A stretch of DNA of 64,000 bases from a virus: positions 6,958-70,957 of IMG/VR virus record IMGVR_UViG_3300031673_000019. One strand, given 5' to 3'. Positions 12,366 to 63,772 of the stretch are shown here, in pieces (within the stretch, counting starts at the first letter, position 1; each line of letters opens with the position of its first letter). The position numbers were made by a program, and so were the translations under genes. The notes under the pieces were generated by a model. That model ran no database searches. It saw only the letters and a list, made by a program, of their open reading frames with translations, and was not told where the DNA came from.

Positions 12366-12403
12366 TTGACATAGCTATCCAGCTAGAGGTATGGCTGGAT
12401 AGC
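12366..12403 (+). promoter_or_regulatory. sigma70-like promoter with 10-bp inverted repeat
   Basis: TTGACA-N18-TATGGC; GCTATCCAGC(12374-83)/GCTGGATAGC(12394-403) abuts the GTG start. Confidence 0.6.
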
Positions 12404-20136: not shown

Positions 20137-20522
20137 TGGCCGGATCACGTATACGAAGCATTGCGTTCCCTTTCCGCAAGGGCACCTTGGCGTTTCCGAA
20201 GCAGTCGGAGAACGCTGAGGCCATTCGTGGGTCGGTGATTCAGATCATCACAACCAACAAGGGCGAGCGCGTGATGCGTCCAGACTTTGGATGCAATGCT
20301 TTCTCGTTCGTCTTTGAGCCGAACTCTGAAGACTTTCGGGGTGACGTGGAGCGAGAAGTGAGGCGATCCCTTGCTCGATGGGAGCGCCGTATCCGCGTTG
20401 ACTCGGTCACGGTTGCACCGGAGAACAATGTGACGGAGCCAGGGCAGATTATCATCTCTATATCCTATACGATCGTCACGACTGGCGAGGTCGACTCAAC
20501 GACCATTGCGGGGGGTGTCTGA
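20136..20522 (+). CDS. baseplate wedge gp25/GPW-like
   Basis: IITTNKGERVMRPDFGC, WERRIRV. Confidence 0.93.
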   Translation: MAGSRIRSIAFPFRKGTLAFPKQSENAEAIRGSVIQIITTNKGERVMRPDFGCNAFSFVFEPNSEDFRGDVEREVRRSLARWERRIRVDSVTVAPENNVTEPGQIIISISYTIVTTGEVDSTTIAGGV

Positions 20523-23140: not shown

Positions 23141-24004
23141 ATGACTGATCGTGAATTATACGAAGCTGTGGCGACAGCGATTCGCAAGGGTCATCCTTCG
23201 ATGGAGGTGCGCTACAAAAACGAATCATGGTTTATGCAGTTGCTAGGGCTATTGGTATACCCGTTCAATCAGGGGTACATGGACAGGCTTACGACGACCA
23301 TTGGTTCGACGGTGTACTTTCCTGCGCTGTATATTGTGCGGGAAGACTTTGAGCGGTACGCGCGGATTTTGGCTCACGAAGGCGTCCACATCTTCGACAG
23401 AGAGCAGGAAGGATTTAGGTTCTTCATCAAGTACCTGATGCCTCAGGCTCTGTTCGTGCCGTTGATGGCAGCCTTTTTTGTATTGGGCGGATGGCTCGCG
23501 GGGTTGGTGCTCATAGGGGGGCTGATTACGTCCTACGGCGCCTTGCTCGCAGCAAGTATGGGGCTGGAGACAGTGAAGGCTCGGCTTGGCGTGTTCTACA
23601 GCCTGGCTGGGCTTACGATGCTTGGGTTCTTCGGGGCTGCCGTGACCACTACTGGGTGGTTGACCGCGCTGCCCGTGATGGCGCTCATGGCGTTAGCCCC
23701 GTGGCCTGCGAGATGGCGGGCGGAATACGAGTATCGCGGATACGCGATGGGGATTGCCATCTCTTGCTGGAAGTATGGAACCTATTCTGATGATATGATC
23801 GCAAGGCGTGTGCAGACGTTCGCCGGGTTCGAGTATTATCGGATGGATCCGAACAAGAAAGCGGTACGCGTTCGGCTAGAGCAGATCCGTGAGATTTGCA
23901 AGACTGGCGCGATTCTGAAGGGTGCTACGGCGCAGCCGTATCGACGAATTTACGATGTGTATCGCAACGCGGGCCGCGTGATGCCTGGGGTCAACTATGC
24001 CTAA
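23141..24004 (+). CDS. membrane-embedded HExxH zinc metallopeptidase-like protein
   Basis: ILAHEGVH motif, ~100-aa hydrophobic block, then RAEYEYRGY third-ligand-like motif. Confidence 0.7.
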   Translation: MTDRELYEAVATAIRKGHPSMEVRYKNESWFMQLLGLLVYPFNQGYMDRLTTTIGSTVYFPALYIVREDFERYARILAHEGVHIFDREQEGFRFFIKYLMPQALFVPLMAAFFVLGGWLAGLVLIGGLITSYGALLAASMGLETVKARLGVFYSLAGLTMLGFFGAAVTTTGWLTALPVMALMALAPWPARWRAEYEYRGYAMGIAISCWKYGTYSDDMIARRVQTFAGFEYYRMDPNKKAVRVRLEQIREICKTGAILKGATAQPYRRIYDVYRNAGRVMPGVNYA

Positions 24005-27000
24005 TACGACGAAGATGCTCTGGCCGTTTCCGGCCGAGGACCAGGATCCGTGGTACGAGACGTTTGCGTCGATGGTGTCCGCTATGGACGCCTCTGCGTA
24101 TGCCGCTCGTGAAGATCGGCAGTTGTTGTTGGGCGGCGGCGGGATTATCTCGTTTGATGCGTCGTCTGGACTGTTGACATGGTCGGCTGACTTCGAGATT
24201 TTTTCGACGATCTCAGGTTTCCTACTGTCGATTCCGGCAGGGTCGGTAACGCTGGCCGACGGGCAGATGGCGTACACGGTCGTGACGCGGTCGCCTACGC
24301 AAGACCTTACGCTCGGGTTTACGGTTGCGGATACGGCTCCTAGCACGGACGGGGCGCTCGTATTTGTGTTTCGCCGCGGGTCGGCGGTCTACTGGCGCAA
24401 CGGAGCGAAGATTGACGATGGCATCCCTGGCGACATCTTTGCCGGGAGCGCTGGCGGAACGGACGCGAATGCGATCCATGTCAACGCAGGCGGCGAGATC
24501 AACGGCTTAACCGCCAAGGGCACGCCCGTTGCGGCAGACATTGTGGTCATTGAGGACAGCGCCGACTCTTTTAGCAAGAAGAAAATCACGCTCACCGACC
24601 TTCTCGGCGGCGGAGGCACACTGGATGATGCTTACGGCGCAGCGGGTGCGGGAAGGACGATCGACGTCGACGGGCCTGGGGTTCTTTTTAACAACTCCAA
24701 TGACAACGCGAACGACGTTTTCTTTGTAACGAAGTCTCCGCCATCAGGGGTGAGGGCAGGCGACGGCATATCAGTTTTTTTGGATACGGATGCTACAGGT
24801 GATAGCATCTATATTGCGCATGACGGGACGGGCGGTTATGCGATTGACATCGATCAGTCGGCAGCCGCGGGCGGCGGCATCCTGGTCTTGGTTGCGGGCG
24901 GATCGAATCCCGGGATTACTGTAGATAATACTGCGGGGAGTGGAGCTTCCGCTGTTTTTGATGGTGGAGCCGGCGTGCAGCTATCTCCCGTTTTGCACCT
25001 CACGTCGGAGGCGGCTGCCGTCCCCGGGGGAGTGCCTGCGGCAGGAGAAGGCAAGCTTTGGGTCAGGAATGATATTCCGAACGTTTTGGTGTTTACGGAC
25101 GACGCCGGGTCGGACACGGTCCTTGGTGCTGGCGGTGGCGGAAATACGCTTGATGGGGCGTATGACCAGGGTGGGGCAGGTGTTGGTCGTGCGATTACAG
25201 CGGATTCTGGCGCTGTCACGGTCACAAGTTCTGCGGCGGACACAAACAACGTCGTCGAGGTAACAAAAAGTCCTGCCGGGGCACAGGCTGGTATTGGCGT
25301 TCTCGTGACAATGGGTGCGAACACGACGGGTGCAGGCCTGAGCGTGGCGCAGTCTGGGACGGGCGCTGCAGCTATTTTGGCAGGCGGGTCAGGTGTACAG
25401 CTATCTCCCGTTATTCACATTACGTCGGAGGCATCTGCTGTCCCCGGAGGGGCCCCATCTGCAGGCCAGGGCAAGCTATGGGTTAGGGATGATATTCCGA
25501 ACGTCCTGGTGTTTACGGACGACGCCGGGTCGGACACGGTCCTTGGTGCTGGCGGTGGCGGAAATACGCTTGATGGGGCGTATGACCAAGGTGGGGCAGG
25601 TGTTGGTCGTGCGATTACAGCGGACGCTGGCGCTGTTACTGTCACGAACTCTGCGGCGGACACAAACAACGTCGTCGAGGTAACAAAAAGTCCTGCTGGG
25701 TCGCAGGCTGGTATTGGCGTTCTTGTGACAATGGGTGCGAATACGACAGGCGCAGGCCTGAGCGTGGCGCAGTCTGGGACGGGCGCAGCCGCCATTTTGG
25801 CAGGTGGCGCGGGCGTGCAGGTAAGCCCTGTCGTTCATTTTACGAGCGAGGCGGCGTCGGTCCCTGGAGGGTCGCCCTCGGCAGGGCAGGGCAAGCTATG
25901 GGTGCGCAGTGATGCGCCGAACGTTGTGGTGTACACCGATGACACGGGTGTGGACACTGTTCTTGGCTCGGGTGTCGCTGAGGCCTTGGCGACGACGGGG
26001 GCCGATGTCGATGTGGCGGCGGCTGCTCCGCCTGAGGTTGGGCAGGTGCTCAAGGCGACGAGTGCCACGACGGCGACGTGGCAGAGTCCTCAGGCTCTCT
26101 CTTCGGCGCAGGGCGACTACATGCTAGCCCAGCTTGCCGCAGATCAAAGCGCAGGGCTTTTGGTCGGGGATCCAGTCCGCTTCGCTTCGGTATTCAATTC
26201 CCGCGGGAGCATCGCTCTCGACGCGGGGACGTACCAGTTCACTCTCAAAGTGGGACGGACATACTTCCTGAATGCCTATGTTCGCAGGGTGGGCACCCGC
26301 ATTAACTTTGCCTGGTATGACGTTACCAACGGCGCGCCCCTTGGCTCCGACGGAGAGGGCTCAAGCTCTGCCAGCAATAGCAACGCCGTCGCAACCGTCA
26401 CCCCCACGACAGACATTCTTGTAGAGGTGCAGATCACCGACGTCAGCGCCGTCACGAGCCTTGACGCTGAGGTGACCGCCGGATACCCGTCCACCTACGC
26501 GAGCATTATCGAGATCGGCGCCGTCCAGGCCAACGTCATCGGCGGCCTGGAGTTCGTGGATGAGATTGTCGTCGCATCTCCGGGGCAAGATTTCTCGTTT
26601 GGTGCGGCGGGGGACGGCCTCTTCCAAAGGGCTCTCGACGGTGACGTCGATGACGAGTACGTCATCATCGGCGATGTCGTGAAGGGGACAGACACCCTCC
26701 AGGATATATCGATCGAGCCCAACGCGCTAACGACGAACCAGCTCTCAACCCGGTATCGATTCATCGACGCATCTTCGACGATAAACATCTCTCAGGATGC
26801 CTACCTCACCGCCGCAAACACGGGCACATCCTTCGGCATCGGCACGGTGATTCACTTTGAGGCTACGCTCCGCGCCAAGACAGGGCAGGGGCGGGGCTTC
26901 TTTTCATCCTTTGGGGCCGACGATGGGACCAACACCCTCGCTGGTCACTCAGGTGGCAGCTGGGATGAGTCGGCCACCGTCATCACGTCACTTGGCATCC

Positions 27001-27947
27001 ACTCAGAGGATGCAGGCGGCATCGATGCTGGGTCACGCTTTTGCCTGTACCGCCGCACCCGCAACAACGTCCGCGCCGACAGCGCGAACACCGCGCGGGA
27101 AGTTCGCCGCATCTCGGTGGCCGATGGCGATGCAGGCCCGACCGCCTACAACCTGTCGCAGACGGCCTTCGGTGGATCGGTCGTTGGTATCTCTCTGCTC
27201 ACCGATGCAGCGGTCACCGCTGGAACCCTGACCGCTGAGGTGAAGGTCGGTGGCGTGTCCATGGGCTCGCTCGCCCTCAGCACCACCTACCCCACCGGCC
27301 GGCGAGCGACCTATGCGATCGGCCTGAACACCTTTGGTGGCAACGAAGCCATCACGGTGGAGATCACCACGGCAGGCAGCTTCGTCGCAGGCGGGCCGAC
27401 TGAAGTCGCCGTCGCCGTCGAGCTGCAAAACGCCGCACTCTTCCAGGGGCCGGCGGGCGGCAAGCAGCACATCAAGACCTATCGGATTGAGAACACAACT
27501 CCTACCACGGTTACGTTTAGCGACCTCGATGGAGACGTTGACGAAATCTATGTCCTTGAGTGGGATATCATCACGGCCGCCGGCACCGTGGCCACGCTGC
27601 AGCCTAATGCGCTGGCCACCAACCAGGGGAGCGTGCGTCTCGCGGGTGGCACCGAGACGGACTATGCGACGCTCAGCATTCTCAACACGTCCGCTGAGCG
27701 CGCCTCTGGATCGGTTCAGTTCCGTGCACGGACCACCCGCAGAAGAACGTACATTTCAACGGCGATGATTGCATCCTCGCCGTATGCGGCGGCAAACGTC
27801 ACTGCCCAGTTTTACACGGGTATCTGGAATGAAACGTCGACAAATATCACCTCGCTCGTGATCGACTCAACGAACGCTCTCCTCGCCGGATCCGAGTTCC
27901 GCCTGTATCGCCTGACTGAAACCGCAGGCGCGGTCGAAGAGCTGTAA
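23997..27947 (+). CDS. long tail fibre, 1316 aa
   Basis: Gly/Ala/Thr-rich, internal 140-aa repeats, duplicated C-terminal domain; follows the baseplate genes. Confidence 0.85.
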   Translation: MPNTTKMLWPFPAEDQDPWYETFASMVSAMDASAYAAREDRQLLLGGGGIISFDASSGLLTWSADFEIFSTISGFLLSIPAGSVTLADGQMAYTVVTRSPTQDLTLGFTVADTAPSTDGALVFVFRRGSAVYWRNGAKIDDGIPGDIFAGSAGGTDANAIHVNAGGEINGLTAKGTPVAADIVVIEDSADSFSKKKITLTDLLGGGGTLDDAYGAAGAGRTIDVDGPGVLFNNSNDNANDVFFVTKSPPSGVRAGDGISVFLDTDATGDSIYIAHDGTGGYAIDIDQSAAAGGGILVLVAGGSNPGITVDNTAGSGASAVFDGGAGVQLSPVLHLTSEAAAVPGGVPAAGEGKLWVRNDIPNVLVFTDDAGSDTVLGAGGGGNTLDGAYDQGGAGVGRAITADSGAVTVTSSAADTNNVVEVTKSPAGAQAGIGVLVTMGANTTGAGLSVAQSGTGAAAILAGGSGVQLSPVIHITSEASAVPGGAPSAGQGKLWVRDDIPNVLVFTDDAGSDTVLGAGGGGNTLDGAYDQGGAGVGRAITADAGAVTVTNSAADTNNVVEVTKSPAGSQAGIGVLVTMGANTTGAGLSVAQSGTGAAAILAGGAGVQVSPVVHFTSEAASVPGGSPSAGQGKLWVRSDAPNVVVYTDDTGVDTVLGSGVAEALATTGADVDVAAAAPPEVGQVLKATSATTATWQSPQALSSAQGDYMLAQLAADQSAGLLVGDPVRFASVFNSRGSIALDAGTYQFTLKVGRTYFLNAYVRRVGTRINFAWYDVTNGAPLGSDGEGSSSASNSNAVATVTPTTDILVEVQITDVSAVTSLDAEVTAGYPSTYASIIEIGAVQANVIGGLEFVDEIVVASPGQDFSFGAAGDGLFQRALDGDVDDEYVIIGDVVKGTDTLQDISIEPNALTTNQLSTRYRFIDASSTINISQDAYLTAANTGTSFGIGTVIHFEATLRAKTGQGRGFFSSFGADDGTNTLAGHSGGSWDESATVITSLGIHSEDAGGIDAGSRFCLYRRTRNNVRADSANTAREVRRISVADGDAGPTAYNLSQTAFGGSVVGISLLTDAAVTAGTLTAEVKVGGVSMGSLALSTTYPTGRRATYAIGLNTFGGNEAITVEITTAGSFVAGGPTEVAVAVELQNAALFQGPAGGKQHIKTYRIENTTPTTVTFSDLDGDVDEIYVLEWDIITAAGTVATLQPNALATNQGSVRLAGGTETDYATLSILNTSAERASGSVQFRARTTRRRTYISTAMIASSPYAAANVTAQFYTGIWNETSTNITSLVIDSTNALLAGSEFRLYRLTETAGAVEEL
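24960..25975 (+). repeat. 420-bp (140-aa) tandem repeat, about 2.4 copies
   Basis: Equivalent positions at 24966/25386/25806 and 25071/25491; long near-identical DNA stretches. Confidence 0.92.
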
Positions 27948-40842: not shown

Positions 40843-43383
40843 TTGCCAGGCTTTGGTTCAGGACCCTTTGGTAAGGGGGCCTTCGGCGAGTGGCCGTGGG
40901 CTTCTGAGTCGATCGTCGACGGCATCCCTGCGGTCTACAAGGAACAAGACGAAGGGGCTGGCAACGGTACCCTGAGTGCACTGCTTGAGGGTCTCGTCCC
41001 GTCACTTGAGTCACTGCGGCGCAAGATTCGCGACTACGATATCCTGCGAAACCCGCTGCTCGCCCCTGTCGACACGTCCTTCCAAACGACACAGTCGATT
41101 TTAAGAAGCGAGAACCTGGGCGACGGAACGTCGCGCGTCTTCTTGAGCGCAGGCTCCGACGGAGATAACCTGGACGGCCTCCGCGTAGGGATGGTGCTCA
41201 TCGATTCCCGCGGGTATCGATTCACTATTTGTTCCGTGGCAACGTCGACCTTGGCCGCCGACGTTGACGACCCGCCGGTGGATCCGGCGACGGGCGCCCT
41301 GACAGGGCGATACGTCATTGTCAATAATATCGGCCAGGTAAGCACAGAATTCATCCCGTTCGTATCGGGGACAATCGTCGAGGACGAAGATCCTCTGGCT
41401 GGTGCGTTCCCGAACAGCCCAAACGACATTGACGATGGCGCAGAGCCCCCGCCCTACATCTTCAACGTGGAAGGTTCGTACCTTAGCGGCGACGACATCG
41501 CGTTGAACCGGGTCACGGTCACGTGGGAGGAAGGTGGCGACCCAAAGACCGGGTTTTTTGTCAATACCGGTAACCCTGGCGGAGATCTGGCGGACACTAG
41601 CGAAATCAACTATGACGTAGCCTCTACGGCGACAGGGCAGATCGTTCTATATACGGCGTCAGGTGCGACGATTGATGCGGACACGATTCGCGTCTCGTAC
41701 ACGAGGTCGGGCGGGGCCCTTGTTGAGGATGCCGAGGTTCGCGCGCAGAACATTTTGGCATTCCTTGCTGCCGACCGAGCGATTTCGCTAGACCTGAATG
41801 ACCCAGAAGTCTACCAGCGCTCGTTCACAAACAGCGCTTTCAAGATATGGGAGATCAAAGGCACCGCGAACGGCTATCGCTACATGGGCGAGCTGGGCGG
41901 CTATTTTGTTGAAGCAATCCCCCTGTACGCGATCCCGTCGTCGCTAGCAGTCACGCTCGACCCTGCCACGGTCATCGCGAACCCAGAAGGCGAGTACGCC
42001 TCCGGGTCGATTGCGGCAGTGCCCGTAGCGTCGCTGGTTGACGGCGAAACGTTTACGCTAAGCGATGGAGAGAATCCTCCTGTCACGTTTGAGTTCGACA
42101 CAGCTCCCATCTCAGTGACCGCCGGGAATGTCTCTGTGGACATCAGCGCGGCAACCACAGCGTCCGATGTTGGTTCCGCGATGGCAACGGCCATCAACGG
42201 GGCGACGTTTCTGAATCTTGCCGCGGTGGGCGGTAGCACTGTCACGGTCACGAATACAGTCGAAGGCGTCGTCGGCAATGTTACGGACTGGAGCGATACG
42301 GTTTCTGACCCGAACTTTATGATCAGCCAGCCTACCGGCGGAATAGACCCGGTCTGGTTTACGATCATTGCTCCGACGCGGCTGCTGTTCGACGAGGTGA
42401 TCGCCGACATCATTCCTCTCGACACGTTGTGCTCCGAAGACACGTACCCCGGCGCGGTTCAAACGATCACCGTAACGGAGGTCGTTGCCGGCCAGGACCG
42501 AGGCAGCGAGACGGGATACACACTGACCGTGTCGACGGCGGAGATGTACTTGTCTTTCGGCACGTTTGGCGAGCTGACCGACGCGAACGCGAACCTCTTT
42601 GACGTTCTTTCGTACACGCGCCTTACGGCATCGACGTTTGAGGTGGAAGTTGCATCGTCGCAAACGCCCGTCGTGGGAGCAGGGTCGATCGACTGGAGGG
42701 TCCTGCGGTTTACCGCTCCGAATACGGTGACCATTACGGGCATCGGAACGGACGTGGAGGATCTTGGTCGCCAGACGGTGGGGTATTCGGGCCGGCGTTA
42801 CCGTGTCACAAAGACATTCACCGATCCTCCGTTGGCCAGCATCGGCAACTGGCTTTTTATCGACGCAGATGGCGTCGCGTCGTACATCGAGCGGTTTGAG
42901 AACATTCCGTTGACGTCCGACTACGAGATTGAATTCGTGTCAGAAACTGTTCCGGCGGCAGGAACGGCGAATGTCTATGCAAGCTGCTCTCTGCAACCTA
43001 GCTGTGATTTCTGTGCGGCAAGCTCTGTGATCATTCGTGTTGTAGCTACAGCGATCAACGGGTACCCGGAAGCTATTGATTCTGGGTCGTTCGATCGGAT
43101 CAGCGGCCGGGTGCTGCGCATGGTTCCAGGCCATGTAAAGCCGATCATTCTGGGTATCGTCGACCCGCCAGAGCTTCTGTCGATTACGCCTGGGGACGGG
43201 ACGAATACGCTGACATGGACAGACGTGGATGGCGCGGTGTCATACAACGTGTACTGGGATACGTCGCCAGACGTGTCTCCCTCTACTTCAAACAAGATTA
43301 CTGGGGTGGTCTCTCCTTATCTGCACGGCGGTTTAACAAATGGTGTCACGTACTACTACGTCGTCGTGGCAGTGGGGATCTGA
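40843..43383 (+). CDS. baseplate wedge P2-gpI/gp7-like with inserted domains and C-terminal FN3
   Basis: LAFLAADRAISLD..IWEIKGTANG, MVPGHVK motif; FN3 LTW..GAVSYNVYW..LTNGVTYYYVV. Confidence 0.75.
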   Translation: MPGFGSGPFGKGAFGEWPWASESIVDGIPAVYKEQDEGAGNGTLSALLEGLVPSLESLRRKIRDYDILRNPLLAPVDTSFQTTQSILRSENLGDGTSRVFLSAGSDGDNLDGLRVGMVLIDSRGYRFTICSVATSTLAADVDDPPVDPATGALTGRYVIVNNIGQVSTEFIPFVSGTIVEDEDPLAGAFPNSPNDIDDGAEPPPYIFNVEGSYLSGDDIALNRVTVTWEEGGDPKTGFFVNTGNPGGDLADTSEINYDVASTATGQIVLYTASGATIDADTIRVSYTRSGGALVEDAEVRAQNILAFLAADRAISLDLNDPEVYQRSFTNSAFKIWEIKGTANGYRYMGELGGYFVEAIPLYAIPSSLAVTLDPATVIANPEGEYASGSIAAVPVASLVDGETFTLSDGENPPVTFEFDTAPISVTAGNVSVDISAATTASDVGSAMATAINGATFLNLAAVGGSTVTVTNTVEGVVGNVTDWSDTVSDPNFMISQPTGGIDPVWFTIIAPTRLLFDEVIADIIPLDTLCSEDTYPGAVQTITVTEVVAGQDRGSETGYTLTVSTAEMYLSFGTFGELTDANANLFDVLSYTRLTASTFEVEVASSQTPVVGAGSIDWRVLRFTAPNTVTITGIGTDVEDLGRQTVGYSGRRYRVTKTFTDPPLASIGNWLFIDADGVASYIERFENIPLTSDYEIEFVSETVPAAGTANVYASCSLQPSCDFCAASSVIIRVVATAINGYPEAIDSGSFDRISGRVLRMVPGHVKPIILGIVDPPELLSITPGDGTNTLTWTDVDGAVSYNVYWDTSPDVSPSTSNKITGVVSPYLHGGLTNGVTYYYVVVAVGI

Positions 43384-54348: not shown

Positions 54349-54377
54349 TTGAAAATAGCCTGGTGCGACTGTATGGT
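54349..54377 (+). promoter_or_regulatory. sigma70-like promoter
   Basis: TTGAAA-N17-TATGGT. Confidence 0.65.
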
Positions 54378-54392
54378 CGCGCCAGGATGCAC

Positions 54393-54425
54393 AAAGGCGG
54401 TCCCACACAAGGGGCCGCTTTTTTT
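54393..54425 (+). terminator. intrinsic terminator
   Basis: AAAGGCGGTCCC-ACACAA-GGGGCCGC followed by T7. Confidence 0.8.
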
Positions 54426-54445: not shown

Positions 54446-55699
54446 ATGGCTGATTTTACGTGGAACAAGGGACAGCGCGAGGCTATCGATCGGATCAGGG
54501 GATGGGCGGATAAGACGGCGGAGGGGATGGAGCTGTCGTTGACGGGGCCGGCCGGATCGGGGAAGACCAGTCTGCTGAAGGCGATTGTCCCCTTCCTGTC
54601 TGGCCAGAAGGTTGCCTGGACGGCTATGACGGGGCGGGCCGCTGTTCGGCTTAGAGATCTGACGAGCGAGCCGGTATCCACGCTGCACAGCGTGCTGTAC
54701 GACAGGCCTCGCGAAGACAGGAAGGGCAAGCTCTGGTTTAACAGGGTCAAGCCTCCTGATTTCAAGTTCCTCGTGGTTGACGAGGCCTCGATGATGGGTC
54801 CCAAGATTTACAATGATCTGAGGGAGTTCATCATGCAGGGCGTGCGAATTCTTTTCGTTGGAGATGGGTATCAGCTCCCGCCTGTGCTCGACTATAAGGA
54901 GATTAAAGATCACGGAGAGGACTTTTCCGTGTTCCGTGAGGTTCCAGGCTGCGCACTCACCCAGGTGATGCGAAGCGACGATGGCATCATCAGGGTGGCG
55001 ACACAGCTTCGGTGCGAAAATCAGGTGCCGAAGAAGTGCATGGAAGGCTATTCGATCCGAAGGTCTAAGACGCCTGGCACCGAGGCGGTCGAAGAGTTCC
55101 TGATGGATAACGACGACCACTTCGTGATCACATGGAGGAATCGCCTTCGGATGCAGGCCAATCGCCTGGTCCGTAAGCGCCTGGGAATGGATGGGCTGTT
55201 GCCGAAGCCGGGGGAGCCGGTGATGATGTGTCGCAATGGTCAGAGCGACGGGTCGCCGCCGGAGTTCGTTCTAAACGGCGAAATTCATTGGGGTTCCGGG
55301 TGGGATCGTGGGCCGAGCCTTGGGCCTGAGGTGCAGACGCAGTGGTTCTATACGGACCATGGGATTCGCGTCCTGGTCAACACGCAGGGCAAGGATGAGC
55401 CGATGGATGGCTTCATGCCGCACGTGGAGGACTGGAAGAAGTACATGTCTGAGCGCCGAATCAGCCGGACGCCAGAGATCGTACCCATTACATATGGCTA
55501 CATTGGCACGGCGCACAAGGCCCAGGGCGACCAGTACCGCAAGGTTACGATCTTCCTCTCGCGTGAGGACTTAGCCAATGACAAGTTCCGCAAGGATACA
55601 TACTTGCCCGACGGGTCGACGATGTCGTTCGCTACCCGTTGGCTATATACTTCTTTAACTCGGGCACAAAAAGAGGTTACACTGATTTTGGGGTCGTAG
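54446..55699 (+). CDS. RecD/Dda-like SF1B ATP-dependent helicase
   Basis: GPAGSGKT, VVDEASM, FVGDGYQLPPV, LTQVMR, TAHKAQG, LYTSLTRAQ. Confidence 0.95.
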   Translation: MADFTWNKGQREAIDRIRGWADKTAEGMELSLTGPAGSGKTSLLKAIVPFLSGQKVAWTAMTGRAAVRLRDLTSEPVSTLHSVLYDRPREDRKGKLWFNRVKPPDFKFLVVDEASMMGPKIYNDLREFIMQGVRILFVGDGYQLPPVLDYKEIKDHGEDFSVFREVPGCALTQVMRSDDGIIRVATQLRCENQVPKKCMEGYSIRRSKTPGTEAVEEFLMDNDDHFVITWRNRLRMQANRLVRKRLGMDGLLPKPGEPVMMCRNGQSDGSPPEFVLNGEIHWGSGWDRGPSLGPEVQTQWFYTDHGIRVLVNTQGKDEPMDGFMPHVEDWKKYMSERRISRTPEIVPITYGYIGTAHKAQGDQYRKVTIFLSREDLANDKFRKDTYLPDGSTMSFATRWLYTSLTRAQKEVTLILGS

Positions 55700-60473: not shown

Positions 60474-60502
60474 TTGACAATAAGGCGACCCGTCGATAAG
60501 AC
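60474..60502 (+). promoter_or_regulatory. sigma70-like promoter overlapping terminator
   Basis: TTGACA-N17-TAAGAC. Confidence 0.5.
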
Positions 60503-60521
60503 AGGGTCGCCTTATTTGTTT
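60479..60521 (+). terminator. intrinsic terminator ending the structural block
   Basis: 13-bp IR AATAAGGCGACCC/GGGTCGCCTTATT followed by TGTTT. Confidence 0.75.
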
Positions 60522-60531
60522 CAGGGGGAGC

Positions 60532-60798
60532 ATGCCGAGGAGACCGCCGGTACGCAAATCCGTTCTAAAAGAGATCGTTCTGTCTCACGTCCGATGGTAC
60601 GAAGCGAGGACGGTCCCCGCTCTAGAGTGGAACGTTGTCAATGATTACGGCTCGGTGACAAGGCGAAGCATCTATCGAAACCTGGCGACCTTGGCACAAG
60701 AGGGTGAGGTCGTTCGGATCCTTGATGAAGATGGCGTGCCGGGGTATGTTCGGGCCAGGCCGCCTCGATGGGATCGGTTTCAGCAGGTTTACACTTGA
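60532..60798 (+). CDS. winged-HTH transcription regulator
   Basis: SVTRRSIYRNLATLAQEGEVVRI..GY (Fur/wHTH-like). Confidence 0.8.
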   Translation: MPRRPPVRKSVLKEIVLSHVRWYEARTVPALEWNVVNDYGSVTRRSIYRNLATLAQEGEVVRILDEDGVPGYVRARPPRWDRFQQVYT

Positions 60799-61340: not shown

Positions 61341-61648
61341 TGCCGGAAGTAGAGGCGGAGCTGTTGGGTGAGTCGACGGATGCCATTGACCATCCCGTGG
61401 TGGTCGAAGACGACGAGGGCGTCGACGATGAGCCCATGAGCTATCAGGAGTTCGTTCAGGTCATTCGCGAGGACGTGCAAGCGTTTGCTGCAGATCTGAT
61501 GAAAGAATATGGCGTGTTCGATGGCCGTGACATGAGATCTGAAATCTCTTGGCTGCTGGAGCAAATCGGGGACGGCATTCGACGTGACTTAGAAAAGGAG
61601 CGGAGAAATAGTAGACAGGCGGTGCAGAGTGCGTCGCGTCATCGTTGA
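61340..61648 (+). CDS. acidic hypothetical protein
   Basis: TGATG coupling. Confidence 0.6.
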   Translation: MPEVEAELLGESTDAIDHPVVVEDDEGVDDEPMSYQEFVQVIREDVQAFAADLMKEYGVFDGRDMRSEISWLLEQIGDGIRRDLEKERRNSRQAVQSASRHR

Positions 61649-61997
61649 GTCGCCCTACAAGGGCGCAACCCCCCAGGAGCTGGGGCGCAACATTCTGTAC
61701 CTGCGCGCCTGCCTGCGGGACTGTCTGCTGCGTGGAGAGGCACCCTACGCCAGCCACGCCATCTACACACAGGATGGCGTGCTCGACGACGACAACCCAG
61801 ACGAGAGAGATCTGGGGATTCGCGCCGGCTTCGAGTGGCGGCAGTCAGCTGAAGTTACGGTGGTTTACACCGACCTTGGTATCAGCAAGGGCATGCAGAT
61901 TGGCATCGACGATGCCCGGCGTCGCTCCTGCGACGTCATTTACCGCTCTCTTCCAGGATGGGGACCCGAAAGGTCAGGGGAGATAACAGTACCTTGA
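61629..61997 (+). CDS. nucleoside 2-deoxyribosyltransferase-like fold protein (DUF4406/DUF7768-type)
   Basis: VIVESPY.G, GEAPYASH..YTQ, VVYTDLGISKGM. Confidence 0.75.
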   Translation: MRRVIVESPYKGATPQELGRNILYLRACLRDCLLRGEAPYASHAIYTQDGVLDDDNPDERDLGIRAGFEWRQSAEVTVVYTDLGISKGMQIGIDDARRRSCDVIYRSLPGWGPERSGEITVP

Positions 61998-62025
61998 CAA
62001 TACGCTGGTCCCTGTAATACACAGG
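61994..62025 (+). promoter_or_regulatory. putative sigma70-like promoter
   Basis: Perfect TTGACA; imperfect -10 (TAATAC or TACACA) inside a CCTGT/ACAGG IR. Confidence 0.5.
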
Positions 62026-62027
62026 CT

Positions 62028-62104
62028 CCAAGGAAAGTTTGAGCGCCGACCCCCCCCTGGCGCTCGACACCTTTAGGGACCCCGGAGACGGGGTCCCTTT
62101 TTTT
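62028..62104 (+). ncRNA. candidate two-hairpin small RNA with C8 loop
   Basis: Upstream promoter, GAGCGCC-GAC8T-GGCGCTC hairpin, then terminator. Confidence 0.45.
62075..62104 (+). terminator. strong intrinsic terminator
   Basis: AGGGACCCCG-GAGA-CGGGGTCCCT followed by T6. Confidence 0.9.
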
Positions 62105-62170
62105 ATTGGCCATGACAGCGGAGGGTAGGCGCCCATCGCTGATCTGGGTATTGACAATGGGCAGATCGTA

Positions 62171-62560
62171 ATGCTTTCTAGGTGCGTGGAAAACCATGGA
62201 ACCAAAGCAGATGATCTGACGATTCAATCGCTGATTGAGCAATCGCATTCAACATCAAAGAGCAAGGGATGGTGGGATGATTCTCCAGAGGGCGACCCAA
62301 GGGTGGTGCCGTCGCTGCTGATGCTGATTGTGTCGGAGATCTCCGAGGCGCTTGAGGAACACCGCCACGGGCGCGCCCCTGACGAGATCTGGTACACGGC
62401 AGAGGGCAAGCCCGAGGGGGTCCCCGTCGAGCTGGCGGATGCCGTGATCCGAATTTGTGACATGTGCGGCAAGTGGAACATTCCGCTCGTCAGGGCCTTG
62501 GTGGAAAAGGCAGCCTACAACCAGACACGCCCGCATCGCCACGGCGGCAAGGTGGTGTAA
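62171..62560 (+). CDS. MazG-like NTP pyrophosphohydrolase
   Basis: KGWWD, LMLIVSEISEALE, PVELADAVIRICD. Confidence 0.9.
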   Translation: MLSRCVENHGTKADDLTIQSLIEQSHSTSKSKGWWDDSPEGDPRVVPSLLMLIVSEISEALEEHRHGRAPDEIWYTAEGKPEGVPVELADAVIRICDMCGKWNIPLVRALVEKAAYNQTRPHRHGGKVV

Positions 62561-63067: not shown

Positions 63068-63519
63068 CGAAGACGCCGTTTGGCAAAGGAGAACAGGGAG
63101 AACAGGGAGGGCAGAGGTGCGCGGCCTCCGTGGACTACCCTGGACGCAGGGGTGCGTGCCGTGTCGAGGCGAAGTATCCAGACCCGGACGGAGTCCGGTG
63201 GTGGTGCGGGATACATCGGCCAAAAAAAGACAAGGTCATGGATGCGAAGGTGGTGTACGTCTCCCCAGCATCAGAGTCAGCTTCGCCTTGCAGTGACGGA
63301 TCGCTGTCATTGAGCCCGGAGGAAACGTACGAACTGCTCATGGCCGCCAAGGCAGCACAGCAGGCGCTGAACGATATCGCCAACACACGTCCAGTGGGGT
63401 GGCAGCCGACAGACCCTGCCGAGAAGTATAGGGTGATCTTAGAGCACGCGTGCGACACCGCCCGCAACGCACTGCAGACGGTCACGTCTGAACTGTCGCG
63501 CATTACGAAAATGATTTGA
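63064..63519 (+). CDS. hypothetical protein with Cys/His motifs
   Basis: C..C..WCGIH N-terminal part. Confidence 0.55.
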   Translation: MTKTPFGKGEQGEQGGQRCAASVDYPGRRGACRVEAKYPDPDGVRWWCGIHRPKKDKVMDAKVVYVSPASESASPCSDGSLSLSPEETYELLMAAKAAQQALNDIANTRPVGWQPTDPAEKYRVILEHACDTARNALQTVTSELSRITKMI

Positions 63520-63544: not shown

Positions 63545-63557
63545 CTCCCAGTCGAGG

Positions 63558-63622
63558 GCCGCACCCCATTAGGGGTTTTGGGCTGTAGACCTAGCTTCGC
63601 CGCACCCGATCGGGTTTTGGGC
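63558..63622 (+). repeat. two direct repeats GCCGCACCC-n-GGGTTTTGGGC, each with an internal hairpin
   Basis: Copies at 63558-63583 and 63599-63622. Confidence 0.85.
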
Positions 63623-63772
63623 ACCGCTAGACGCACACTTTATAACGGTTGGGAACTTTGGAGGACTCGTGCGTCCTCGCGTTCTTGATGTTTTAGGTGA
63701 CGACGTCGCGGCAGGTGAAGCTCTTACTGGTAGCCGCATGCGCCGTCGCTCATGCAAGGACGAGGTATTGTG

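Follow-up and report, generated by a model that had tools for sequence, protein, structure and literature searches.

A candidate small RNA with an exposed C8 loop at the 3′ end of an accessory operon in an uncultured soil myovirus

RESULTS

Genetic organization of the locus

The DNA analyzed here (the window, 64,000 nt) corresponds to bases 6958 to 70957 of a 76,157-base IMG/VR virus record, IMGVR_UViG_3300031673_000019, whose completeness CheckV puts at 45%. The phage is an uncultured soil myovirus with sheath, tape-measure, and baseplate genes, a G+C content of 58%, and almost all of its genes on the plus strand. Its nearest cultured sheath homolog is that of Bacillus phage BCD7, with 38% identity, and a search of GTDB genomes for a prophage relative found none.

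The element under study sits in a 174-nt gap that separates a DUF7768 gene from a MazG-like one, within a region of small accessory genes (Table 1). The DUF7768 gene closes a four-gene operon that begins at a promoter at 60474, and its product has relatives in Gordonia phages that carry the annotation nucleoside deoxyribosyltransferase. An ORF at 61645 to 61986 that overlaps this gene was discarded as a wrong-frame artefact. On the other side of the gap, a GTG at 62186 opens the 124-residue ORF of the MazG-like protein. This codon lies at an offset of 35 nt from a second copy of the sequence TTGACAAT, and the MazG-like gene is probably leaderless from that position. A 19-codon ORF without a Shine-Dalgarno sequence also occupies positions 62112 to 62171 and ends, as TAATG, on the ATG at 62171 of the long version of the MazG-like ORF. 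It is probably a chance ORF, the leaderless GTG start being in better agreement with the promoter geometry.

An initial annotation had described in this gap a promoter, a 7-bp stem displaying a run of eight cytosines (C8), and a 10-bp terminator stem closed by a GAGA tetraloop. All of these parts were found as described, the two hairpins exactly so.

TABLE 1 Features of the DUF7768-MazG-like gap and of its flanking genes
Feature	Position	Strand	Evidence
DUF7768 gene, last of the four-gene operon	61629..61997	+	Pfam PF24963, E 8e-26, residues 3-105 of 122
TTGACAAT, extended -35 element of the lineage's promoter class	61994..62001	+	Enrichment and start-codon offset
Candidate -10 region (TAATACA 62015-62021)	62011..62025	+	Sequence, likeness to lineage promoters
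5′ domain of the predicted RNA: extended irregular helix, 7-bp core stem, GACCCCCCCCU loop	62030..62073	+	Folding
C8 run, proposed seed for G-run pairing	62050..62057	+	Homopolymer count, unpaired probabilities
Intrinsic terminator: 10-bp stem (8 G-C pairs), GAGA tetraloop, U-tract	62075..62104	+	Terminator scan, perfect inverted repeat
Second TTGACAAT promoter (62151-62158) and MazG-like pyrophosphatase gene	62151..62560	+	phrog_3301, E 4e-35

An intrinsic terminator at the end of the upstream operon

The 3′-most hairpin of the element, AGGGACCCCG-GAGA-CGGGGTCCCT at 62075 to 62098, is followed by six further T residues up to 62104 (T-run 62098 to 62104). It has the hallmarks of an intrinsic terminator, a G+C-rich hairpin with a U-tract immediately after it. 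Approximately six canonical terminators of this type are present on the coding strand, and this one ranks among the strongest hairpin-plus-T-run sites of the genome. It must be common to the upstream operon and to the predicted short RNA. Since it must also end the four-gene operon, the element functions, in part at least, as an ordinary 3′ end, and its sequence is therefore made at least as the 3′ UTR of the transcript initiated at 60474.

It could then be argued that the element is a passive 3′ end altogether. The three hairpins that follow the DUF7768 stop codon (62011 to 62025, 62041 to 62065, and 62075 to 62098) would terminate the operon transcript and protect it from 3′ exonucleases, the promoter at 61994 would be silent or of negligible activity, and the C8 run would have no role in pairing. 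The location of the terminator, 77 nt past the last stop codon of the 60474 operon, agrees with this explanation, as do the hairpins found directly after stop codons at 12366, 54349, and 60474. We nevertheless consider it rather doubtful. Other terminators of the phage follow stop codons without an added hairpin that carries a homopolymer loop, and the chance of encountering TTGACAAT within 100 nt upstream of this terminator is only about 0.001 to 0.005. Among five related records, the segment from 61994 to 62104 is the sole unit in which TTGACA is followed by a terminator within less than 200 nt.

Another strong terminator, GGGCGGGAAGG / CCTTCCCGCCC, lies outside the window at positions 72220 to 72257 of the record, after a gene for a 493-residue protein. 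Its tail, TTTATTGGC, is identical to that of the terminator at 62075, and the coding strand may switch beyond it.

A lineage-wide promoter motif precedes the element

A TTGACA hexamer at 61994 to 61999, extended to TTGACAAT, overlaps the TGA stop codon (61995 to 61997) of the DUF7768 gene, in the part that encodes the non-conserved C-terminal tail of the protein. This extended motif is enriched 3- to 6-fold, with 5 occurrences observed against 1.7 expected in the record itself, and 16 against 2.9 and 11 against 3.7 in two related records (G001 and G002, respectively) whose sheath proteins are 64 to 67% identical. The coding strand of the record carries four copies, at 60474, 61994, 62151, and 66706; all are intergenic except the one at 61994, with its overlap of a stop codon. 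An ATG or GTG codon that opens an ORF of at least 45 residues is present at an offset of 33 to 40 nt, mostly 35 or 36 nt, from 14 of 32 such sites (44%), compared with 8.3% of random positions. Enrichment together with a start codon at a fixed offset argues that TTGACAAT is a working -35 element, often of leaderless mRNAs. As far as can be judged from such start-codon positions, this implies that many mRNAs are leaderless in these soil myoviruses. In the record itself, the class includes the MazG-like gene and the gene at 66742. Its layout, repeated at many sites in G001 and G002, consists of TTGACAAT, about 15 nt, a loose -10 element, and ATG or GTG at an offset of 35 to 36 nt. The -10 elements are indeed variable, with TATATC, TAATGT, TATACC, GATACC, and CATACC among them.

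A small inverted repeat, CCTGT/ACAGG, holds the candidate -10 element of the 61994 promoter in its loop and 3′ arm. This -10 element is weak in every register, TAATAC with a spacer of 15 nt, AATACA with 16 nt, and ATACAC with 17 nt; T is missing from the last position, and TAATAC, the better hexamer, is separated from the -35 element by only 15 nt. A generic consensus scan called no promoter at 61994, because this element is poor. Both observations suit a silent site within a passive 3′ end. Against such a site, TTGACAAT is rare and functional elsewhere in the lineage. The 61994 site also shares the arrangement TTGACAAT-N15-ATAC with the leaderless promoter at 66706 (position 73663 in record coordinates), and its -10 element resembles the TATACC and GATACC sequences of G001 promoters. 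Thus, the promoter proposed by the initial annotation is well founded in its -35 element, an enriched motif of the lineage, and weak in its -10 element, which the generic scan does not recognize. From the geometry of the class, we infer a transcription start at A62030, at an offset of 36 nt from the -35 element. No start codon is present at that position.

The two neighboring TTGACAAT copies, at 61994 and 62151, form a 17-nt promoter repeat with a period of 157 nt. They were considered as part of a MITE or as a target-site duplication, and this was rejected as there are no terminal inverted repeats. A repeat of another kind is found at 25140 to 25165 and 25560 to 25585, where an identical 22-nt stretch (ggaaatacgcttgatggggcgt then ATG) recurs 420 nt apart within a fibre-like gene for 1,316 residues (23997 to 27947), which indicates an internal repeat of that gene.

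Three further arrangements of promoters and hairpins were noted in the window. At 60474 to 60521, the hairpin AAGGCGACCC / GGGTCGCCTT comes immediately after TTGACAAT and is itself followed by ATTTGTTT, so that promoter and terminator are interleaved, with a -10-like TAAGAC in the hairpin loop; transcripts arriving from upstream would stop there, and transcription toward the gene at 60532 would begin within the 3′ arm. The gene at 54446 is preceded, at 54349 to 54425, by TTGAAA-N17-TATGGT and, within about 10 nt of it, by a strong terminator (GCGGTCCC / GGGGCCGC plus T7). This is the second instance of a promoter-then-terminator layout, and no second promoter comes after it. Lastly, a long leader downstream of a TTGACG-N17-TATCTT promoter at 63516 contains two tandem mini-hairpins of the form GCCGCACCC-loop-GGGTTTTGGGC (63553 to 63625).

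Could the terminator be regulated?

A promoter followed at short distance by a terminator may also be a site of regulated termination. A factor would override the terminator, as in the PR′-6S-tR′/Q or N-nut systems of lambda; that factor would bind the C8 hairpin in the RNA, expression of the MazG operon would gain from read-through, and the short RNA would be a by-product. The hairpin does sit between promoter and terminator, and the promoter-close-terminator layout recurs at 54349 to 54425, before a helicase-like gene with no other visible promoter. However, the MazG-like gene has its own TTGACAAT promoter past the terminator and is probably leaderless. It therefore needs no read-through of the terminator at 62075, nor is the short unit needed as its leader. 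The genes downstream, the MazG-like one and small accessory genes served by a promoter of their own, are not those of a lambda-type Q unit, and the 76-kb fragment, 45% of the genome, encodes no Q-type antiterminator (PF06530 or PF03589). The 11-nt poly-C loop is unlike the GNRA-type pentaloops of boxB, and no alternative antiterminator fold competes with the terminator. Taken together, these data make regulated termination quite unlikely here. On inspection, nut/boxB and rut sites were rejected for the hairpin, its loop being of the wrong type and length.

The predicted RNA exposes a unique run of cytosines

The strands of the perfect 7-bp stem, GAGCGCC (62041 to 62047) and GGCGCTC (62059 to 62065), enclose the 11-nt loop GACCCCCCCCT at 62048 to 62058. 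In the predicted fold, this stem is prolonged by an irregular helix, at the base of which AAGG (62030 to 62033) pairs with CCUU (62070 to 62073). A62030, the putative transcription start, is thereby the first paired base of the extended helix, a coincidence that speaks against a passive 3′ end.

The predicted free energy of the 76-nt segment from 62030 to 62105 is -39.7 kcal/mol, versus -23.3 ± 3.0 kcal/mol for shuffled sequences (z = -5.5), and none of 200 shuffles was equally stable. The structure is thus non-random, beyond what chance would produce. The minimum free energy and centroid structures agree, and the bases of the terminator are paired with a probability above 0.99. In contrast, the C-run is unpaired with a probability close to 1.0, and of at least 0.86 at every position.

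The C8 run is the only run of at least seven G or C residues, and hence the longest G/C homopolymer, in the 76-kb record. Such homopolymers are depleted in this genome: runs of six or more C residues occur 6 times where 17 are expected, and those of six or more G residues 8 times where 55 are expected. That the longest C-run of a homopolymer-poor genome falls exactly in a loop is a further point against a purely passive 3′ end.

The element could alternatively be an empty cassette, the scar of an ORF lost from between two promoter copies, or could itself be a tiny gene. A candidate for the latter extends from TTG 62039 to TAG 62127 and encodes 28 residues, with the C-run read as Asp-Pro-Pro. 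It is preceded at 4 nt by an AAGGA motif, and the G+C content at third codon positions (GC3) in that frame is approximately 0.72. The two promoter copies 157 nt apart also bring to mind the tandem promoter/stem-loop cassettes through which T4-type phages gain and lose genes (PMC4122927). However, the ORF crosses the 10-bp terminator, so that the terminated RNA would contain no stop codon for it; in addition, its start codon is TTG, the Shine-Dalgarno motif lies too close to that codon, and the product has no match in Pfam. As for a scar, recombination between the repeats would delete the whole cassette rather than empty it, and a decaying sequence would not retain so stable a fold starting exactly at +1. 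We thus regard a remnant or a tiny gene as highly improbable. Other small or opposite-strand ORFs were likewise rejected, as there is no family match and the ORF crosses the terminator; a Pfam search with all ORFs across the gap yielded no family match.

These data agree in part with the non-coding transcript of about 75 nt proposed by the initial annotation. The fold, the position of the putative +1 at the base of the helix, the lack of a start codon there, and the lack of Pfam matches speak for such a transcript, whereas the same sequence is also the 3′ end of the operon. A discrete non-coding unit of approximately 75 nt is therefore plausible.

The element has no detectable relatives

At gathering thresholds, Rfam models found nothing in the whole window, and ARAGORN detected no tRNA or tmRNA. 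Exact searches of IMG/VR yielded no match for the hairpin and none for the terminator. The 21-nt hairpin core has three matches in JGI metagenomes, which were dismissed as chance occurrences given their unrelated flanks. A single-sequence covariance model (R1), a type of search that the initial annotation had suggested, recovered the element alone in its own genome and had no match in four related phage records; no second copy or analogue was found in the relatives.

The neighborhood is similarly isolated. Relatives of the MazG-like and DUF7768 proteins in IMG/VR are at most 59% identical and have no common neighborhood or intergenic element, and the best DUF7768 relative in a database of 5.8 billion proteins is 67% identical. 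The relatives identified by their sheath proteins (64 to 67% identity) are devoid of the DUF7768 and MazG genes and of the neighbors encoding 175 and 492 residues. Other, near-identical assemblies (Logan/ENA) encode identical flanking proteins, with 87,835 bases for the longest such contig. The searches thus turned up no relatives that would show selection on the loop, which is compatible with a passive 3′ end.

Potential targets of the C8 loop

The initial annotation had suggested that the C-rich loop pairs with G-rich Shine-Dalgarno sequences, which it considered frequent among late genes. Runs of at least four G residues are indeed found in 24% of translation-initiation regions, compared with 11% of background windows, and runs of at least five in 5 of 80 regions. 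Most Shine-Dalgarno sites of the phage, though, are ordinary GGAG or GAGG sequences, and the roughly 2-fold enrichment is what would be expected of any purine-rich Shine-Dalgarno region. The evidence from G-runs is accordingly permissive only. As a pure C-run fits GGAG and GAGG poorly, the RNA would be a selective regulator and not a general anti-Shine-Dalgarno one.

For the bare loop, the computed pairing energy is -19 kcal/mol with the GGGGGG Shine-Dalgarno sequence of the baseplate-wedge gene at 20522, and -13 to -17 kcal/mol with the initiation regions at 40843, 17094, 67251, and 60532. One G6 run of the record, at 20510 to 20515, constitutes the Shine-Dalgarno site of that baseplate-wedge gene. 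Several phage mRNAs, including that of the MazG-like gene, are apparently leaderless, with no Shine-Dalgarno sequence, and would therefore be out of reach of the C8 RNA.

A pure homopolymer loop is better suited to a sequence-specific single-strand binder than to GGAGG sites, and the loop is predicted to be fully exposed. The element might thus be a decoy or binding site for a host or phage RNA-binding protein, such as a KH-type protein or another C-binder. However, no candidate binding protein was identified, the element is present in a single copy, and known bacterial C-rich loops, where tested, work through RNA pairing (PMC6486639). This makes a protein-binding function very unlikely.

DISCUSSION

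Proposed function of the element

We tentatively favor the hypothesis that the element encodes a small RNA of about 75 nt embedded in a 3′ UTR, which is transcribed from its own promoter, shares the operon terminator, and pairs through its C8 loop with G-run ribosome-binding sites; we hold this hypothesis with somewhat less than even confidence. A host-type promoter, made up of the -35 element TTGACAAT and a weak ATAC-type -10 element, and overlapping the stop codon of the DUF7768 gene, would direct transcription from near A62030, and the intrinsic terminator of the operon would end it at about 62104. The product would be an RNA of approximately 75 nt with two hairpins, the same sequence being also made as the 3′ UTR of the four-gene operon. 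The tip of the 5′ hairpin would keep eight cytosines permanently single-stranded, and this run may block translation initiation by pairing in antisense fashion with G-run ribosome-binding regions in a subset of phage or host mRNAs. The operon, an early or accessory one, would then contain a small non-coding RNA gene at its 3′ end.

An extended version of this proposal divides translation into two classes, with leaderless mRNAs from TTGACAAT promoters for many early or accessory genes on the one hand, and Shine-Dalgarno-dependent mRNAs for the structural and host genes on the other. The C8 RNA would silence G-run Shine-Dalgarno sequences without the help of a chaperone, its candidate targets being the baseplate-wedge gene at 20522, the other phage genes with Shine-Dalgarno sequences of five to six G residues, and host genes. 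If so, sparing of the leaderless class would provide an RNA-based switch for timing or host shutoff. We find this extension unlikely at present.

The element is a single orphan locus and should be viewed as a well-defined candidate, not as a discovery. A more solid by-product of this work is the class of leaderless promoters with TTGACAAT, which is of practical use to annotate start codons and transcription units.

Comparison with known systems

Phages are known to produce short RNAs from a promoter with a strong terminator nearby, as illustrated by the oop RNA (77 nt) and the PR′ 6S RNA of lambda and by c4 of P1 and P7. The oop and c4 RNAs have defined adjacent phage genes as antisense partners or targets, and the 6S RNA is a by-product of late transcription regulated by Q. 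Unlike them, the element described here lies opposite no gene and is followed by a gene with its own promoter, and the search for a Q homolog found none in the 76-kb fragment.

The position and geometry of the segment from 61994 to 62104 are compatible with a small RNA embedded in a 3′ UTR and endowed with its own promoter. In enterobacteria, type I RNAs of this kind, such as DapZ and MicL, have an internal promoter and share the terminator of the mRNA; they are Hfq-dependent and have non-homopolymeric seeds. The element resembles them by a promoter situated within the upstream coding sequence or at its end, a common terminator, and a seed located in a 5′ hairpin or single-stranded region, with the difference that its transcript is predicted.

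An exposed C-rich loop is the design of RsaE/RoxS and RNAIII in Firmicutes and of the alphaproteobacterial anti-Shine-Dalgarno small RNAs. With RsaE/RoxS, RNAIII, and the alphaproteobacterial mmgR, AbcR, and “cuckoo” RNAs, which target Shine-Dalgarno regions, the element has in common an exposed C-rich motif, a short RNA, and a terminator hairpin. The motifs of the RsaE, RNAIII, and mmgR type are UCCC or CCUCCC, which complement GGAGG, whereas the C8 of the element would prefer G-runs. The match to the mmgR/suhB family (RF00519) reaches 24.9 bits, below the gathering threshold of 41, and the alignment mostly covers the terminator.

In T4-type phages, PeSL cassettes consist of repeated early promoters of the sigma-70 type and stem-loops, in the variable accessory part of the genome (PMC2839356, PMC4122927). 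Similarly, TTGACAAT is repeated (at 60474, 61994, 62151, and 66706) together with stem-loops in an accessory region. In PeSLs the stem-loop precedes the promoter and an ORF follows each of them, whereas in the element the promoter comes before two hairpins and no ORF.

The highest sub-threshold Rfam match is that to 6C (RF01066), with 25.5 bits and an E value of 0.2 in a search of 351 nt, versus a gathering threshold of 47. The 6C RNA was shown experimentally to repress G-rich ribosome-binding sites by means of C-rich loops and without a chaperone, and in Mycobacterium tuberculosis, the C-loop of B11/6C pairs with sites such as the AGGGGGG of panD (PMC6486639). 6C is defined by two stem-loops with conserved cytosines in each loop, whereas the second hairpin of the element has a GAGA tetraloop; there is thus a single C-rich loop here, in a phage-borne element with no demonstrated sequence homology. 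The two Rfam matches therefore represent resemblance, not membership. The resemblance to actinobacterial 6C lies in a GC-rich stem with at least six unpaired cytosines, and the covariance model aligns the first hairpin well. If real, the RNA would be a phage-encoded counterpart of the C-rich-loop small RNAs of the 6C, RsaE, and RNAIII type that block G-rich ribosome-binding sites, in an uncultured soil myovirus that apparently uses many leaderless mRNAs. This combination would make it testable whether one small RNA can separate the phage's own translation from Shine-Dalgarno-dependent translation.
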